Of a stretch of 64,000 nt of DNA, positions 42,450-50,162 are shown piece by piece (within the stretch, counting starts at the first letter, position 1; the number at the start of each line of letters is the position of its first letter). The notes beneath the pieces are model-generated. The model saw only the letters and a program-made list of their open reading frames with translations, did not search any database and was not told the DNA's origin. The stretch covers positions 1,695 to 65,694 of the forward strand of contig PBZE01000037.1 of assembly GCA_002730095.1 (NCBI GenBank), read 5' to 3'. The stretch comes from Methanobacteriota archaeon (lineage in GTDB: Archaea; Thermoplasmatota; Poseidoniia; Poseidoniales; Thalassarchaeaceae). A program made the translations under genes and the position numbers.

Positions 42450-43682
42450 TCATAATTCGTCAAAAATCTCATACAGTCTTTCTGAGAATCTTTCTGGGTT
42501 CAAACCCTTCATTGAAATTCCAACCCTTCCGTTTTCCGACCATTGCGCTCGGTTCTCTGCGACCCCAGCTTCTTTGAGAGCATTATGCCATGCCGAGTAA
42601 TCATCCCTCGGTAGTAGCCTACCAGAATCTCCATCAGATATTGTCTCCTTGAAACCTCCTTCATCCACGAACAGTGCTGGCGTTCCAATCGTCTGTGCCT
42701 CAATCGGAGTGAGGCCAAATGGCTCAGAGTGAGCCATGCTAACCACGGCCTTGGCCCCTCTAATCAGACTGCAAAGATCAGTATAACTGAGCCTAGGAGC
42801 TATCCATATCCCAACCTTACAATCCTCTGCATGACTAGCCAGAGAATCAAGATCCCCTGACTCGCCCCCACCTACATGCGCCAAAGAATGCCCACTCCCT
42901 TGGAGCATTGATATCGTCTCCCAGGTGCCCTTCACCCAACTAGCCTTGCCAATGGTCACCACGTAGGGCTCAGTAGGCCCCTCTATCTTGATAGGCTCAT
43001 CATCAGAAGGGTTCTGCGTAAACTCACCTATCCCTAGGCTAGGCAAGAGAACGCCGGACGGGATTCCATATACCTCCCCAATTCTTGATGAAGTGAATTC
43101 AGAGTTTCCGCTTATGGCCGATCTATTCCTGGCATAAAGCTCCCTGATGAGTGAAAGATCCCTCCGTCTCGCTAGTGCTAAAGCAGCCTTTGTTACACCA
43201 AGACTCCTCCTTGGCCTACCGTCAATACCACGATGCAGAACATCCTCATGGAGCCCTCTATGGGGCTCCAAAAGGTGTAAGTGGATAGCAACGTCCTCGG
43301 GAATGATTTTCAAAATAGCCAAGCTACCATCTCCGCTTGTAATATGAGCAAAGTCAAACTCATTCAAGTCGTCCATTAGATTTCCGACCGACTTCCAACA
43401 CTCCAATGCTCTAGAATAATCAGTGTCAAGAACTCTGGAAATCACACTACTAGATTGCGACCATTTTAGACTCGGAGTCATTAATCGTATGCCATTTTCT
43501 TCGCAGACGCTAGCTAGCTCAGAAGAACTTTCCAATGTTGCAACAGAGACAGTAAATTTCTTAGATAGGGATGGAAGATTTCTGATTATGTCCCTCTCCG
43601 CTCCTCCCATGGGGGCAAAGCTACCCTTTGCGACTAGCAATCTTCTCGGAGGAGCACCAGTCCCGCCCCCATTGCGCGCCAT
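42450..43682 (-). CDS. glycosyltransferase, GT-B fold (family 4-like)
   Basis: VVSMAHSEPFGLTPIEAQTIGTPALFVDEGGFKETI is the E-x7-E region of GT4 enzymes. Confidence 0.8.
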   Translation of the reverse strand: MARNGGGTGAPPRRLLVAKGSFAPMGGAERDIIRNLPSLSKKFTVSVATLESSSELASVCEENGIRLMTPSLKWSQSSSVISRVLDTDYSRALECWKSVGNLMDDLNEFDFAHITSGDGSLAILKIIPEDVAIHLHLLEPHRGLHEDVLHRGIDGRPRRSLGVTKAALALARRRDLSLIRELYARNRSAISGNSEFTSSRIGEVYGIPSGVLLPSLGIGEFTQNPSDDEPIKIEGPTEPYVVTIGKASWVKGTWETISMLQGSGHSLAHVGGGESGDLDSLASHAEDCKVGIWIAPRLSYTDLCSLIRGAKAVVSMAHSEPFGLTPIEAQTIGTPALFVDEGGFKETISDGDSGRLLPRDDYSAWHNALKEAGVAENRAQWSENGRVGISMKGLNPERFSERLYEIFDEL

Positions 43683-43732
43683 GAGCCCCCATCACCCGTC
43701 CTCGTTTAAGTCCGATACGCCTTGGTGAGAAC

Positions 43733-44824
43733 ATGGTGAGGAGAGTTCTACTGGTCAGAGGACCTCGCCTTTCAGAGGATTCGGGCCTGGGCAGAGCACA
43801 TCATTCAATCGAGCATTCGCTGAACAGAGCTCTGGTACCCAACTGGACAAAAATCAACACTATCGAACATGAACCAATGGATACTCTTCCATCAAGAGTC
43901 ATGAAGAGATGGTTCTCTCACCCAAGATTAGTCAATCAAATATCAGAGTCTACAGAGGCCGATTTGATTCATATAACTGACCAGGAGCAAGCCCATTTGG
44001 TACCAAAGAAAAGCAAGGTTCCGGTAATCGTCACAGTCCATGACTTGTTTCACATAAGCCCAAGGGAGATAGTTGGGGGGGATGTAGTAGTTCCAGTGGG
44101 AGATAACAAACCCGGATTCTTCAGGAGGAGAGATCTGAGAAATCTGAAGAACGGACTTCGGAGGGCCGATATGCTGATTTGTATTTCTGAGGCCACTCTG
44201 GAAGATGTGAAGAGAACATTCCCAGGAAAACCAGTTGCTCTTGTGAGGCACCAGATTGACACAGAATACTGGAGTCCAATTTCAAATCCCAGGCCAAGAG
44301 AGATTCTTGGTGACCTAGATGACGAATCAAAGATGCTTGTGATAACTTTGGGGAGCAATGAAAGAAGGAAAAGACTCGATTTTGCCAAGAAGGTGATTTC
44401 TTCTTTGCCCGAGGAGGTCTCCAAAGATATCAATGTGATCCACATAGGAAGCGATGTGAAGATAACCGATGATCAACTACTCGCAGCTCTACAAAATGCG
44501 GAGGTCCTACTGTTCCCCAGTGCGAGCGAAGGATTCGGGTACCCCCCTGCCGAGGCAATGGCTGCTGGTTGTCTAGTACTCGCCTCGGACTTGCCCGCAC
44601 ACAATGAGATAATTCCAGACACCTGCCTGCTACCCCCTACCTCAATCCAAGACTGGGTAAGTGAGTTGACATCTATCCATGCCAATTGGAGGGCTGCAGG
44701 AGGGGTTCCGAGACTCCCATCAGACGAGTTGATGAATCATGTAATGAACAACCTGAGCCCTGAATCCCATGGAAAATCTTTAGCAGAAGCATATGAAACA
44801 GTTTTCTCCGACAAAATAAATTGA
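43733..44824 (+). CDS. glycosyltransferase, GT-B fold (family 4-like)
   Basis: VLLFPSASEGFGYPPAEAMAAGCLVLASDLPAHNEII is the GT4 C-terminal motif. Divergent from the previous GT gene across a 50-bp spacer. Confidence 0.8.
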   Translation: MVRRVLLVRGPRLSEDSGLGRAHHSIEHSLNRALVPNWTKINTIEHEPMDTLPSRVMKRWFSHPRLVNQISESTEADLIHITDQEQAHLVPKKSKVPVIVTVHDLFHISPREIVGGDVVVPVGDNKPGFFRRRDLRNLKNGLRRADMLICISEATLEDVKRTFPGKPVALVRHQIDTEYWSPISNPRPREILGDLDDESKMLVITLGSNERRKRLDFAKKVISSLPEEVSKDINVIHIGSDVKITDDQLLAALQNAEVLLFPSASEGFGYPPAEAMAAGCLVLASDLPAHNEIIPDTCLLPPTSIQDWVSELTSIHANWRAAGGVPRLPSDELMNHVMNNLSPESHGKSLAEAYETVFSDKIN

Positions 44825-44889: not shown

Positions 44890-45594
44890 GTGCTGGAAGT
44901 AAGTAATCTGACGAAGTCCTTCGGCTCGGGAAGGAACAGGCTCGAAGTGCTAAAGGGAATTGATTTGAAAATCGAATCCGGTGAGCTCGTCGCTCTAATG
45001 GGGCCGTCAGGATGTGGAAAGTCCACCCTTCTGAACATTATCGGCGGACTTCTGGAAGCTGACTCTGGCTCCATTTCACTGAATGAATTTGATTATGGGA
45101 CATATCCCCCGAACAGGGTTGTAGACGTCAGAAGAAACGGAGTGGGATGGATATTCCAAGACTTCCATCTTGTAGACAGGCTTTCCGCACTCGACAATGT
45201 GACTTTCGCTTTGGAGCTATCGGGCGTCCCAACCTCACTCGCAGAGTCGCAGGCTGAGGAGGCACTTCGCAAGGTTGGCCTGTCAGACAGAATGAACTTC
45301 ATCCCTGACCAGCTTTCGGGAGGGCAGAGGCAGAGGGTCGCCATTGCCAGAGCAATCTCTGGCTCGAGGCCCCTCATCCTTGCTGATGAGCCGACTGGCA
45401 ATCTAGATGTCAAGAGCGCTGAAGGAATTCTTGATCTTTTCAAGGAGCTATGCGAGGATTATGGCATCTCCGTCCTGATGGTTACCCATGACCCTAACCT
45501 TGCATCAATGGCAGACAGAATGCTCCTACTCAAGGACGGTGTTACTGCCGCTTCAGATATCAGATCTGCATGGGGAACGGCGGGTGATGAATGA
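44890..45594 (+). CDS. ABC transporter ATP-binding protein (MacB/LolD/FtsE-like)
   Basis: Walker [13 protein letters not shown], signature [14 protein letters not shown], Walker [15 protein letters not shown] start. The stop overlaps the next start (ATGA). Confidence 0.9.
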
Positions 45595-48500
45595 TGGATT
45601 TCTTCTACGAGGATGATCACAGGCCAGAATCTCCAATGCATCCATTTGAGGCCATAAAGAAATGCATCGTAAAGACAGGGGACCTAGGGGGAAGGGCGTC
45701 AAGATCAGAATTCTGGAACTTCTTTTGGTTCTATCTTATACTGGCTCCAATATTATTTGTAGCTGACATTTTTTACAAAATTATGATTTTATCATTGTCC
45801 TCTCTTGTGGGCATAGGATTGCTTGATACACTTTTCTTTGTTCCCCTGTCCTACCTAGTTCTCTTTACTCAACTTGCTCTGTTCTATTCCTTCACAAGTG
45901 TAACCGTTCGTAGGTTGCATGATTTAGGAAGATCTGGTTGGTGGTTAATCAGTACCCCGATCCCTCTCCTCAACTTTGTACTGCCTTTCTTTCTTGTTCA
46001 AGAGGGTGAATACAATAAAAATGAGTACGGATCAGTACCAGACAATGATCCGATAAACGCTTCAATCATGGAAATAATGTATGCCATGCCTGACAATATG
46101 TCAATGGCGTTCAAGAGTGCTTGGAAGGGAAGGGAAAGGGTACTCGCAGTTTTTGCAGGTGTCTTCTTGGCATCGCTTGTCATAACTACAGTCCTAGCTT
46201 ACTCTGCTGGACTGAATGGGGCTTTCCTACAATTCTCTCTACAAGATGAAATCTTTGACGGAAAGGTGGATTTCGCCAATGACCCGGGTCAGGATTCTGA
46301 AGGCAGAACAAATGACTCATTACTCTGGGAAACCGCCTGCTCTGAACTCATACAGATGGACGAAATATCCGATTGTGGGTTAGTATTCGGCAGACAGGGA
46401 GTGAGAGTCAGCGGATTTTTAGATGATGGCGCCATAATTCCTCAGCCCCTAAATGCCGTAGGGGTCACTAGTACTGTTGGGGATTGGAACAATGTCAGTT
46501 GGGAATATCCCGAGGCTTATGACTCAGGACCTCCAATTAACGATAAGAGGACGATAAGGTTCTATGGAGAGGGAATATGGGACGGCGATTTGGGAGAGAG
46601 ACATTCTAACCGGGTGATATATGGATCATGGCCAGGATCTGCTGAAGAAGCCGCTTCAAATCGCTCGATCATCCTCCCTTCTCAAATTGCTGGTAAGGCA
46701 GGTGTAGGAGTAAACGACACCCTCGAATCATTAACCTTCTCTTACACATACGACTACCTTGGCTACCAAGATATACCCTCTGGCTTCGATGACTGTCCCG
46801 GGTACGAATATTTCAATCTCGATTCTGGATTCCTGTATTGTCAAGTTAACATGACGGTTTACGATCTCAAGGTAGCCGCGGTTTATCAGGAAGGAGGGGC
46901 AGGCAACCCAACTCTCCTGTTTAATCCGATAATGGTCTCGGCCTCGGTTCTCAACGATTCTCAGAAGCTTACCCTGATGGACAATGATCACGGATACCTC
47001 GGAATAGCAGTAGATAGGAACCAGCTCCCCTCCTCATCTACGAGCGCCGCCACGAAGTGGCTGGATGGATTGAAGGGGGAGATTGAGGGGTCCAATTACA
47101 CTATCGGTAATGACATAATGGTTGAATACAACGACCTCATTTCAGGCTCCATTTTATTCCTCGAGTTGTTATTGGGGCTAATAAGTGTCTTCGACTACAT
47201 CCTGATGATACCAATAGTGATACTATCATTCTCAGTTCTTATTTATGGTCTGATACTTTCTCTGGAACAGAGGAGAAGGGAGATCTCAATTCACAGGGTT
47301 ATTGGGGGTACGGAGTCAACTCTCGGCTCCCTGATTCTTCGAGAGCTGTCGGTTGTAAGTGTGCTTGGTTGGTTCTTAGGATATGTCCTCGCAATGGCCT
47401 CCGTGCCAGTAGTACTTGATGCGGTTGGATTCATGGCCTTCGAGAAAAGTGACTTCAGAGTAGTGCCCACATTGAGCGGGTTAGCTACATTCTTGATTTT
47501 CCTCGTGACAGTCGGGATAACTCTACTCTTTGGGAGCTCCAGAACATCAGAATTCTTGAGTATAGAAATCGATGAAGGAGTCAGAAGAGTTGCTCCTAGG
47601 AAGAGATCAAGGTTTTGGCTACACCTTCTGGTCTTCTTTGTTGGCGTCCTGTCATTTGTAGAGAGCTGGATAGAGAGTAACGGTGGTTTTGGTCCGTGGG
47701 GACCAAAGGGAATAAACTCCAATTTCATAGTCGATGGACTATTATTCCTGTTCGGCCCGTTCTTCCTCTGGATAGGTGGAGCCCTAGTACTCGGTAGAAT
47801 AGGCGCGGCGGGGCCTAGGATATTCACGACATTGTTTGGGTGGACCCCTGTCCTGACAGATATCAAGAGGGGATTGAGGGGATCAGGGTCGAGTGAATCA
47901 GTGAATCGTCTAGCAATAATATTACTGCTAACCCTATCAATTGTCACTGTTGCAGCCGTACAGGGGTATACCGGAACTCTGGTGGACGAGAGAACCACTT
48001 CTGCGCAGACCGGTGCGGACTTGCAGGTTCAATTCGATGAGCCAATCTCACAGCAACGAGCTATGGAGGAGGTAACGCTAGCAATACAAAGAGCCGATGT
48101 ATCCGAGATTGACTCAATAGACTACATGACCTCGGTCGGAGATATCTTCACAAATCAGAAAGGCGAAGGTTCCCTTCTCAGGACATGGATCGTCTTTGAT
48201 GGGCATGAAGATACTTTACAATGGGATGAGCAGGCAATACCGGGCAGTGACATTGGAGCTGTGTCAGATGACTGGGCATTATCGGGATTCACTGCTGGTG
48301 GGGCTGCAAGAAACCAATTGGATATTTCTAAATCAGATGTTGGATCTAATGTAACTTTACAGTACACTTCCTACGGATTCGGAGGATTCGATAGCGAAAT
48401 GAATCCAATAATAACCTCGACGATAACTGAGGCTGAGGTAACATACATGGGAGGACACAGATGGGTTCCAGGGTTACTATCCTCAGAGTCATCCCAAGCT

Positions 48501-49163
48501 ATAGTCATCGGTGAAGGAACTTACAAGCTTCTTCTAGGGCCATCGGCTGTCACTGACTACACGTCGAATCGCTGGTTCTTCGAGCTATGTGACCAGTCTC
48601 AAAAGGATTGTAAAAACGCATTGAAGACCCTAGGTGTCGAGGTCTCAAACGGTGAGGGCGTCTCATCCGCTAGCGATTGGGGGACAAATCATGAGGGCAA
48701 TGAACGTACAGGCGGGCTAATTTTCGGTACGCCGGGACTCCTAAGCCTGCAATTCGTCGTGGCATCATTGGCTTCGATAGCCTCGGCATTCGTATTCCTA
48801 TCACTCGTTCTATCACAGAGGAAGAAGGAACTGGCCATTCTTCAGGCGATCGGAGCAAGCCCGGCGCAGGTATTGCGTCTGGTACTTTTCGAGATAATGG
48901 CGATTCTCTTGGTTAGTATGGCCCTGGGAGTTATTCTCGGTTTGGCTATATCAGAATCATTCAACGGATTCTTCGGGGTATTTGGATTCATTTTCCAGAT
49001 TTTCCTCGGTCAGAGCGCCCCGATAGACAGGGACTTAGTTTGGCCTTGGACAGAGTTAATCATCGTGAATGCCTCAGTGCTCGTAGCGGTTGTGATAGCT
49101 CTTCTACTGACAACCAGGAGAGCATTGAAGTCTGACTTGGCAATAGTGCTGAAGGGGGAGTGA
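45591..49163 (+). CDS. 1190-aa fusion: N-terminal DUF805 membrane domain plus a double FtsX-type (MacB-like) ABC permease with two large extracytoplasmic domains
   Basis: DUF805 hallmarks are PFEAIKKCIVKTGDLGGRASRSEFWNFFWF...TVRRLHDLGRSGWWLI...NKNEYG (nt about 45642-46040). The two FtsX helical bundles are EISIHRVIGGTESTLGSLILRELSVVSVLGWFLGYVLA and ELAILQAIGASPAQVLRLVLFEIMAILLVSMALGVILG. Each is preceded by a soluble loop of 200-300 aa. Confidence 0.8.
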   Translation: MMDFFYEDDHRPESPMHPFEAIKKCIVKTGDLGGRASRSEFWNFFWFYLILAPILFVADIFYKIMILSLSSLVGIGLLDTLFFVPLSYLVLFTQLALFYSFTSVTVRRLHDLGRSGWWLISTPIPLLNFVLPFFLVQEGEYNKNEYGSVPDNDPINASIMEIMYAMPDNMSMAFKSAWKGRERVLAVFAGVFLASLVITTVLAYSAGLNGAFLQFSLQDEIFDGKVDFANDPGQDSEGRTNDSLLWETACSELIQMDEISDCGLVFGRQGVRVSGFLDDGAIIPQPLNAVGVTSTVGDWNNVSWEYPEAYDSGPPINDKRTIRFYGEGIWDGDLGERHSNRVIYGSWPGSAEEAASNRSIILPSQIAGKAGVGVNDTLESLTFSYTYDYLGYQDIPSGFDDCPGYEYFNLDSGFLYCQVNMTVYDLKVAAVYQEGGAGNPTLLFNPIMVSASVLNDSQKLTLMDNDHGYLGIAVDRNQLPSSSTSAATKWLDGLKGEIEGSNYTIGNDIMVEYNDLISGSILFLELLLGLISVFDYILMIPIVILSFSVLIYGLILSLEQRRREISIHRVIGGTESTLGSLILRELSVVSVLGWFLGYVLAMASVPVVLDAVGFMAFEKSDFRVVPTLSGLATFLIFLVTVGITLLFGSSRTSEFLSIEIDEGVRRVAPRKRSRFWLHLLVFFVGVLSFVESWIESNGGFGPWGPKGINSNFIVDGLLFLFGPFFLWIGGALVLGRIGAAGPRIFTTLFGWTPVLTDIKRGLRGSGSSESVNRLAIILLLTLSIVTVAAVQGYTGTLVDERTTSAQTGADLQVQFDEPISQQRAMEEVTLAIQRADVSEIDSIDYMTSVGDIFTNQKGEGSLLRTWIVFDGHEDTLQWDEQAIPGSDIGAVSDDWALSGFTAGGAARNQLDISKSDVGSNVTLQYTSYGFGGFDSEMNPIITSTITEAEVTYMGGHRWVPGLLSSESSQAIVIGEGTYKLLLGPSAVTDYTSNRWFFELCDQSQKDCKNALKTLGVEVSNGEGVSSASDWGTNHEGNERTGGLIFGTPGLLSLQFVVASLASIASAFVFLSLVLSQRKKELAILQAIGASPAQVLRLVLFEIMAILLVSMALGVILGLAISESFNGFFGVFGFIFQIFLGQSAPIDRDLVWPWTELIIVNASVLVAVVIALLLTTRRALKSDLAIVLKGE

Positions 49164-49166
49164 GAT

Positions 49167-50162
49167 ATGGAAGAGGAATCAATTATTCTTGAAGCTAAGA
49201 ATATGTATCATATCTACGAGAGCATGAGCCTAGAAGGAAATGTAGTTGCATTGAGAGGACTCAATGTTAAGATCAAGGAGGGCGAGGCCGTTGCTGTCAT
49301 AGGCCCATCTGGATCTGGAAAATCAACACTTCTGAAGTGCCTAGGTGGTTTGATGAAACCATCATCTGGCTCAGTCTCGCTAGGTGGGAAGGAAATGATA
49401 AGAATGACTGGAAACGAACTAGTCAGACTCAGGCAGGAAACAGTCTCTTTCATCTTCCAAGACTCAAATCTACTTCCCGATCTGAATGCCCTGGATAATG
49501 TCGCACAACCACTCAGGCACCAAGGGGTGATGCCGGGGCCTGCAAGGGCCAAGGCTAGGGAGTTGCTCGAGAGGCTAGCGATGGGTGACAGGTGGATGGG
49601 TATGCCAGAGCAACTCTCCGGAGGAGAGCAACAGCGTGTGGCGATCGCTAGGGCACTGATAACCAATCCAAAGCTGATACTAGCAGATGAGCCAACAGGT
49701 GCGTTGGATCCAATCACCAGTAGGGAGGTCCTAGAGTTGTTCGAGAAGCTCCATGAGGAGGAAGACGTGGCCTTCTTACTGGTCACCCACAATAGGGACG
49801 TGGCGTACTTCTGCGAGAGGTCTCTGGAACTCAGAGAGGGGAGGTTCGTGGCACAACACGGCACAGATTTCGACTTGTCAGATCTCTCAGAAACTAGGGA
49901 GCTAATTATCGACGATACCGGTACCATAACTCTCCCTCCAGATCTATTGTTGAAGCTCGGAGGGCCTGGAAGGTTCGACGTCCCCAATGTGGAAAGAGAC
50001 TCTCTAAATCTAGAGAGAGTGGAAGACGAGAAAATCGAGGTCGAGGCCAAGAATAAGAGAGAGCTTGCACAGACCTGTCCCGCTTGTAATTACGATTATG
50101 CTGACTCAATCGATCAGATTTGTCCAGAATGCGGGTCCACGAGGCCAATTGTTCACACTTGA
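49167..50162 (+). CDS. second ABC ATP-binding protein with a C-terminal extension ending in a zinc ribbon
   Basis: Walker [38 protein letters not shown]. An extra tail of about 95 aa ends in CPACNYDYADSIDQICPECG (nt 50076-50132). Confidence 0.9.
   Translation: MEEESIILEAKNMYHIYESMSLEGNVVALRGLNVKIKEGEAVAVIGPSGSGKSTLLKCLGGLMKPSSGSVSLGGKEMIRMTGNELVRLRQETVSFIFQDSNLLPDLNALDNVAQPLRHQGVMPGPARAKARELLERLAMGDRWMGMPEQLSGGEQQRVAIARALITNPKLILADEPTGALDPITSREVLELFEKLHEEEDVAFLLVTHNRDVAYFCERSLELREGRFVAQHGTDFDLSDLSETRELIIDDTGTITLPPDLLLKLGGPGRFDVPNVERDSLNLERVEDEKIEVEAKNKRELAQTCPACNYDYADSIDQICPECGSTRPIVHT

Follow-up and report, generated by a model that had tools for sequence, protein, structure and literature searches.

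Does the DUF805 membrane domain encoded at the front of this archaeal permease gene form one protein with the transporter, and, if so, what could it do there? The locus lies in the window, the stretch of 64,000 nucleotides that was analysed, in which a single open frame on the forward strand (45591-49163) encodes 1190 amino acids. It comprises a DUF805 head followed by what the open reading frame, Pfam, AF2 and Foldseek together indicate to be a duplicated FtsX (type VII ABC) permease. There is no stop codon between the two parts, as the initial annotation had claimed. We consider it very probable that the product is one polypeptide, in which DUF805 is an accessory head on the cytoplasmic side of a YbbP/BceB-like permease served by two ATPases, that translation starts at the ATG overlapping the upstream gene, and that the head goes back to a single capture.

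The identity of the head was established by Pfam search. PF05656 (DUF805) matched amino acids 33-147 (45687-46031, forward strand) over profile positions 5-110 of 111, with an E-value of 8.4e-19 and a score of 68.5 bits against a gathering cut-off of 25.7. When the first 170 amino acids were searched by themselves the E-value was 1.3e-20, and in a profile search of the window's genome the domain scored 74.8 bits. The elements follow each other in the order GRASRSEFW, TM1, TM2, the RRLHDLGRSGWW loop, a proline-rich third hydrophobic segment and EGEYNKNEYG. The signature used here consisted of GRxxRxE(F/Y)W before TM1, RR(L/Y)(H/Q)DxGxSGWW after TM2 and a C-terminal GxxxxNx(Y/F)G. These motifs were kept in 34 of 34 aligned fused sequences (the window protein and 33 orthologs); in fused heads of subtype C the second motif reads RRYQDSGFS(W/I/L)FW. 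Thus the full signature that had been read from the letters (GRASRSEFW, RRLHDLGRSGWW, NKNEYG) is present as quoted, the segment passes the DUF805 profile, and the interval to which it had been assigned, 45642-46040, falls inside the head. DUF805 usually occurs as a stand-alone protein of ~120 amino acids, whereas in the present case it forms the N-terminus of a 1190-residue protein. This layout is an architectural variant and does not affect membership in the domain family.

The whole head extends from 45591 to 46088. It starts with a 15-residue extension (45591-45635, forward strand; pattern Y..(E/Q)..(H/D)RP...M), which was recognized by aligning the heads with stand-alone members; it is specific to the fused heads and missing in stand-alone DUF805 proteins. 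The domain is followed by a linker (amino acids 148-166; 46032-46088, forward strand), where the variable part of the gene ends. AF2 models the linker as coil, then as the start of a helix spanning residues 159-179. It contains Met codons at 46068, 46077 and 46086, and two more lie slightly past it, at 46098 and 46104. A sequence search of PDB chains found none similar to the DUF805 head, and no relative of the head was found in viral contigs. The protein would accordingly be described as a complete DUF805 module with its 15-residue extension, joined by a linker of ~20 amino acids to a ten-helix permease.

Named homologs belong to Candidatus Thalassarchaeum and the Thalassarchaeaceae (marine group II archaea, Poseidoniales). 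Calls of the identical length, 1190 amino acids, occur in NCBI nr, Tara, JGI and Logan assemblies. In a family sample of 120 reference genomes of Thalassarchaeaceae, ten genomes carry fused frames of 1149-1214 amino acids, all of which read through without interruption: seven from the window's own genus (G035, G046, G067, G087, G097, G107 and G117), one from another genus (G018) and two from a third (G058, G108). The same-length calls across assemblies and the open frames in ten genomes show that the fusion is not an assembly artefact. It was also found in 33 further aligned protein clusters with identities down to 62%, and the heads of more than 40 fused sequences contain no stop codon. No ortholog compared had a stop or a frameshift separating the two parts. 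One close ortholog (P0011, 85% identical) seemed to lack the head, and this candidate was rejected: Ns span the 3′ end of the ATPase gene and the head, and in the scaffold FLEGESSKNKYG, the DUF805 C-terminal motif, follows in frame past the gap. The 120 nt of Ns (L002 3813-3932, public scaffold ERZ23491893) led to a shortened, seemingly head-less protein call, and such N runs in metagenome scaffolds call for caution when architectures are counted.

In the sister family (99 genomes) DUF805 was detected solely in frames of at most 330 amino acids, and no second copy was found in the window's genome, which is 79.5% complete. A word-index search for other long DUF805 proteins returned only the same clade and one eukaryotic multi-DUF805 protein of 732 amino acids. 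The head matches 12,256 representative clusters (50% identity), of which the best 150 were considered. The fused permease of G018 (G018:C1:411530-415057, genus g6) is 81% identical to that of the window, and four species of the window's genus without the fusion have permeases that are only 63-67% identical to it. The G018 similarity suggests either that the locus moved from one genus to another or that its allelic lineages predate the genera.

The conserved permease core extends from Pro167, the first residue of a PDN motif, to the C-terminus (46089-49160, forward strand), as delimited by invariant columns in an alignment of 72 orthologs, by secondary structure and by fold. Pro167 and Asp168 are invariant, and conservation continues from there via Met172. 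The initial annotation had placed a typical FtsX N-terminus behind the DUF805 segment. Such an N-terminus does follow; conservation, though, begins slightly before the Met quoted as its start, at Pro167-Asp168. In the core an elbow helix is followed by TM1 (amino acids 181-219), extracytoplasmic domain 1, TM2-6, TM7, extracytoplasmic domain 2 and TM8-10. PF02687 (FtsX) matched twice in the same chain (E 3.4e-19; best stretch amino acids 1055-1181). The AF2 model built from the 72 orthologs (mean pLDDT 70.6, pTM 0.57) has ten long membrane helices and two β-rich extracytoplasmic domains. When it was compared with the PDB using Foldseek, E. coli YbbP (9ge6/9ge7) ranked first, with an E-value of 5e-13 over ~1065-1080 aligned columns; BceB (1e-11), LolE/LolC (2e-09) and MacB (3e-08) came next, a ranking to be read with the model's pTM of only 0.57. 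The Foldseek ranking and the helices of the model point to a single-chain, duplicated type VII ABC permease with ten helices, similar to YbbP and BceB. Scores for the YbbP equivalog NF041854 (NCBIfam; 10.7 bits, cut-off 999) and for ADOP TIGR03434 (34.9 bits, cut-off 622) fell far below their thresholds. The permease is placed outside the curated YbbP and ADOP families, though it is predicted to work like their members.

Genes for PF00005 ATPases flank the permease gene on both sides, with an overlap of 4 nt upstream and a gap of 3 nt downstream. ATPase 1 (44890-45594, forward strand; 234 amino acids, E 1e-34) has its last ~5 codons in the variable cassette described below. ATPase 2 (49167-50162, forward strand; 331 amino acids, E 8e-35) carries a C-terminal zinc ribbon: it has a C-terminal extension of ~95 amino acids that ends in CxxC...CxxC, and its DZR match is weak (amino acids 300-323, E 0.025, under the cut-off). 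The permease would be powered by these two separate ATPases; in the operon two different ATPase genes serve one pseudo-dimeric permease. Directly upstream, at 42450-44824, are two glycosyltransferase genes, one GT1-type on the reverse and one GT4-type on the forward strand, from which a link of the transporter to surface glycan assembly is possible. The gene order GT1, GT4, ATPase 1, permease, ATPase 2 and, on the opposite strand, Tyw1 is common to orthologs with every type of head. PADLOC reported only generic ABC-ATPase similarity.

The start ATG of the fused gene overlaps the TGA stop codon of ATPase 1 by 4 nt (ATGA, 45591-45594), and the Shine-Dalgarno-like GGTGAT at 45582-45587, 3 nt upstream of this ATG, is complementary to the 3′ end of archaeal 16S rRNA (start context 45582-45594, forward strand, from reading the sequence). 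A start-stop overlap or abutment with ATPase 1 is present in orthologs of every head type, and this shared coupling supports initiation at the first codon of the head. Translation would then begin at the ATG overlapping the ATPase 1 stop. The initial annotation had also raised an internal start that would yield the permease alone. In its broader form this explanation holds that the functional permease is made mostly from an internal start at Met160-172, with DUF805 as a separate or rare product, or that the head is cleaved off after insertion. There are five Met codons within 13 codons just upstream of the core, at least 90% of orthologs keep Met172, the head-less orthologs P0114 and P0117 start at this very point, and gene callers sometimes picked the internal start (P0091 compared with P0077). 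We nevertheless regard it as unlikely, since Pro167 and Asp168, which lie upstream of Met170 and Met172, are invariant, so the residues before those methionines belong to the protein. Moreover, the internal ATGs lack a Shine-Dalgarno-like motif, whereas the first ATG has both GGTGAT and the ATGA overlap, and the head is under purifying selection in the fused frame, which is free of stops.

Purifying selection was assessed by pairwise Nei-Gojobori estimates. The dN/dS ratio was 0.07-0.28 in the head, compared with 0.04-0.07 in the core, indicating that the head is translated and constrained, although less tightly than the core.

If the head is a translated part of one polypeptide, as we think, how firmly does it belong to the transporter? 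In the 72-ortholog alignment the segment before PDN falls into four kinds. The first is DUF805, in three subtypes that all have the 15-residue extension. The second, here called LPF, is 45-62 amino acids long with a single short hydrophobic helix. The third kind consists of acidic hydrophilic tails, and in the fourth there is no head at all, e.g. MNERLLSMPDN; P0114 and P0117 begin just ahead of PDN and show that in relatives the permease is viable without a head. Most orthologs, including those of four species of the same genus, bear other heads or none. What is new here is that DUF805 is one of at least four swappable N-terminal heads before the PDN core.

The exchange can be followed on two metagenomic contigs, one with an LPF head (L017) and one with a DUF805 head (L018). 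Their ATPase flanks are 96.4% identical over 869 nt, and from PDN onward they are 97.5% identical over 3514 nt. Between these flanks lie 176 nt and 487 nt, respectively, with no detectable similarity. The breakpoints, which follow ...SDIRSAWG in ATPase 1 and coincide with PDN, indicate that the tail of the ATPase is swapped jointly with the head. ATPase 1 is 236 amino acids long in L017 and 245 in L018. The cassette (L017 870-1045, L018 1777-2263) takes in the last 7-16 codons of ATPase 1, the tails are ADAGVGE and MDSQSAQQESGNAEEG, and tail and permease head always travel together. By comparison with these contigs, the approximate equivalent in the window, comprising ATPase 1 tail and head, is 45577-46088 on the forward strand. 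The possibility that LPF is what is left of a 5′-truncated DUF805, with the RR loop and the third segment, looked plausible by eye and found no support: hhalign gave no match between the two heads (probability 0.6%), and the cassettes share no DNA similarity.

Mapping the DUF805 state onto the permease-core tree takes no fewer than 5-6 changes, and within one clade of 28 rows DUF805 and LPF heads are interleaved. Exchange has occurred among DUF805 alleles too, G087 and G067 having a dS of 0.24 in the core and 1.2-1.8 in the head. Heads would be exchanged or replaced, after the original capture, by homologous recombination through the conserved flanks. The segment before Pro167 would be a recombination hot-spot that can hold DUF805, LPF, an acidic tail or nothing, even within near-identical populations.

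Where did the DUF805 head come from? Stand-alone DUF805 proteins of Thalassarchaeaceae stop at ...YGxVPTNTL(E), the very position at which the linker of the fused form starts; the head therefore corresponds to a whole DUF805 gene minus its stop codon. We looked for stand-alone DUF805 genes adjoining the operon in unfused relatives and rejected this source, because the genes are on other contigs or, in G030, ~950 kb away. Across the 120-genome family sample, stand-alone DUF805 genes and FtsX operons did not share a conserved neighbourhood. The unconstrained DUF805 tree separated subtype C from subtypes A and B. A tree with all fused heads in one clade had a higher likelihood (AU p 0.98), which, given the few columns (133) of the alignment, means that a single origin is not rejected. 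Several independent fusions are disfavoured by the better one-clade tree and by the 15-residue extension common to all subtypes. For the same two reasons the simplest history is one capture, after which heads spread and were replaced. It is probable that all fused heads go back to one stand-alone archaeal DUF805 gene, which was captured once and lost its stop codon.

The fusion also constrains the membrane topology of DUF805: its C-terminus has to lie on the side of the membrane where FtsX has its N-terminus. In type VII permeases TM1 begins on the cytoplasmic side. The ~48-residue segment ahead of FtsX TM1 is rich in Lys and Arg and the segment behind TM1 is acidic. Since FtsX TM1 starts in the cytoplasm, the DUF805 C-terminus would be cytoplasmic as well. 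In other proteins zinc-ribbon and FHA domains sit N-terminal of DUF805, which suggests that its N-terminus is cytoplasmic, too. With both termini on this side the number of membrane crossings has to be even. The third hydrophobic segment varies in length among heads, with ~16 residues in subtype C, 20 in the window protein and 44 in the P0009 type; it is proline-rich, and AF2 splits it into three short helices with low confidence (pLDDT 55-62). Rather than a single-pass helix, this third 'helix' probably forms a hairpin or a re-entrant element whose depth varies. A hairpin would put all three polar motifs on the cytoplasmic side, near TM1, the ATPases and the co-swapped tail of ATPase 1. Against it, the C-terminal tail of stand-alone DUF805 proteins is acidic and fits the outside better by the positive-inside rule. 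The alternative is an inverted DUF805, which places five to six Arg residues outside.

What could a cytoplasm-facing head of this kind contribute? The literature mentioning DUF805 gave no function for it. Transporters that are 97% identical and have no DUF805 indicate an accessory head, serving in tuning, localisation or partner binding, and not a part of the transport path. DUF805 would lie outside the conserved transport machinery, the invariant core of which starts at Pro167, and the head could act from the cytoplasmic side by tuning the transporter or determining its location, and not by carrying substrate. The suggestion of the initial annotation that DUF805 is an accessory module of the transporter agrees with a head that is dispensable and exchangeable among near-identical alleles. 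It is highly improbable that DUF805 is instead a working part of the transport path, which binds or recruits a membrane-embedded substrate such as a lipid-linked glycan intermediate and passes it on into the lateral cavity of the FtsX bundle: the closest solved relatives do take hydrophobic molecules out of the membrane (YbbAP-TesA, PMC12646458, by Foldseek match) and the two syntenic glycosyltransferase genes directly upstream are possible makers of such an intermediate, but DUF805 is entirely missing from alleles whose permease and ATPase are 97% identical, most orthologs, including the four same-genus species, have other heads or none, and DUF805 is fused to non-transporters as well (zinc ribbons, FHA domains and an Rce1-like protease).

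The accessory role that we favour has its own limit: as the head has been lost or replaced in close relatives at no visible cost, any functional link to transport may be a weak one. The fusion to the front of the permease is only a modest clue to the role of DUF805, because close relatives replace the head, and this dispensability limits how much of the transporter context can be read into the domain. Elsewhere DUF805 occurs in tandem copies and behind zinc ribbons or FHA domains. In another Thalassarchaeaceae locus (L030, G039:C1:219387-221021) a 545-residue frame joins DUF805 (E 1e-18) to a downstream Rce1-like CPBP intramembrane protease domain (E 6e-24). Here, too, the third hydrophobic segment of DUF805 is enlarged, to ~40 residues, and G007 has a similar frame of 543 amino acids. 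From such domain combinations DUF805 appears to be a promiscuous membrane add-on.

A wider proposal, which we think doubtful, is that DUF805 is a cytoplasm-facing, two-helix-plus-hairpin regulatory or targeting head that is exchangeable among membrane machines. In marine group II archaea the alternatives on one ABC transporter (DUF805, LPF or none) would then be a within-species polymorphism under balancing selection, perhaps exerted by viruses that enter via DUF805 proteins. The virus-entry idea was prompted by the likeness to YhaH, which two E. coli phages need for infection (PMC12548472).

DUF805 is a very large family, and the fusion provides matched alleles of the same transporter with and without the head at 97% flank identity. 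They are a natural experiment suited to a head-swap assay. The locus also presents the N-terminus of an archaeal type VII ABC permease as a cassette-like recombination hot-spot.

The head-swapped orthologs (e.g. P0035, P0077, P0097 and P0114) are the nearest systems for comparison. They share the operon, the synteny and the start-stop coupling, and the nucleotide identity of their cores reaches 97%; they differ in the N-terminal 0-70 amino acids, which are unrelated to DUF805. Stand-alone members of PF05656, among them E. coli YhaH and YhaI and the Poseidoniales copies, share all three motifs with the fused head and have their hydrophobic segments arranged in the same order. Relative to them the fused head has lost the stop codon, gained the 15-residue N-terminal extension and become covalently tied to a transporter.

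Among transporters of solved structure, BceB (BceAB-type, PDB 7TCG and 8G3A), the second-best structural match, has the ten-helix type VII fold. It differs in having one large extracytoplasmic domain, in working with the BceRS sensor kinase and in lacking DUF805; among the neighbouring genes of the archaeal operon no gene for a BceS-like sensor kinase was found. The closest likeness is to YbbP (YbbAP-TesA, PDB 9GE6/9GE7), likewise a single chain, in which a pair of FtsX four-helix modules is combined with two further helices and a pair of extracytoplasmic domains. A recent study showed that YbbAP-TesA removes hydrophobic compounds from the inner membrane (PMC12646458). The identity between the two permeases is only 12%, and the archaeal core is ~220 amino acids longer. 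YbbP is served by one ATPase, YbbA, whereas two different ATPase genes serve the archaeal permease, and unlike YbbAP-TesA the archaeal operon has no TesA-like partner. Finally, the archaeal permease carries a DUF805 head, which YbbP does not have.
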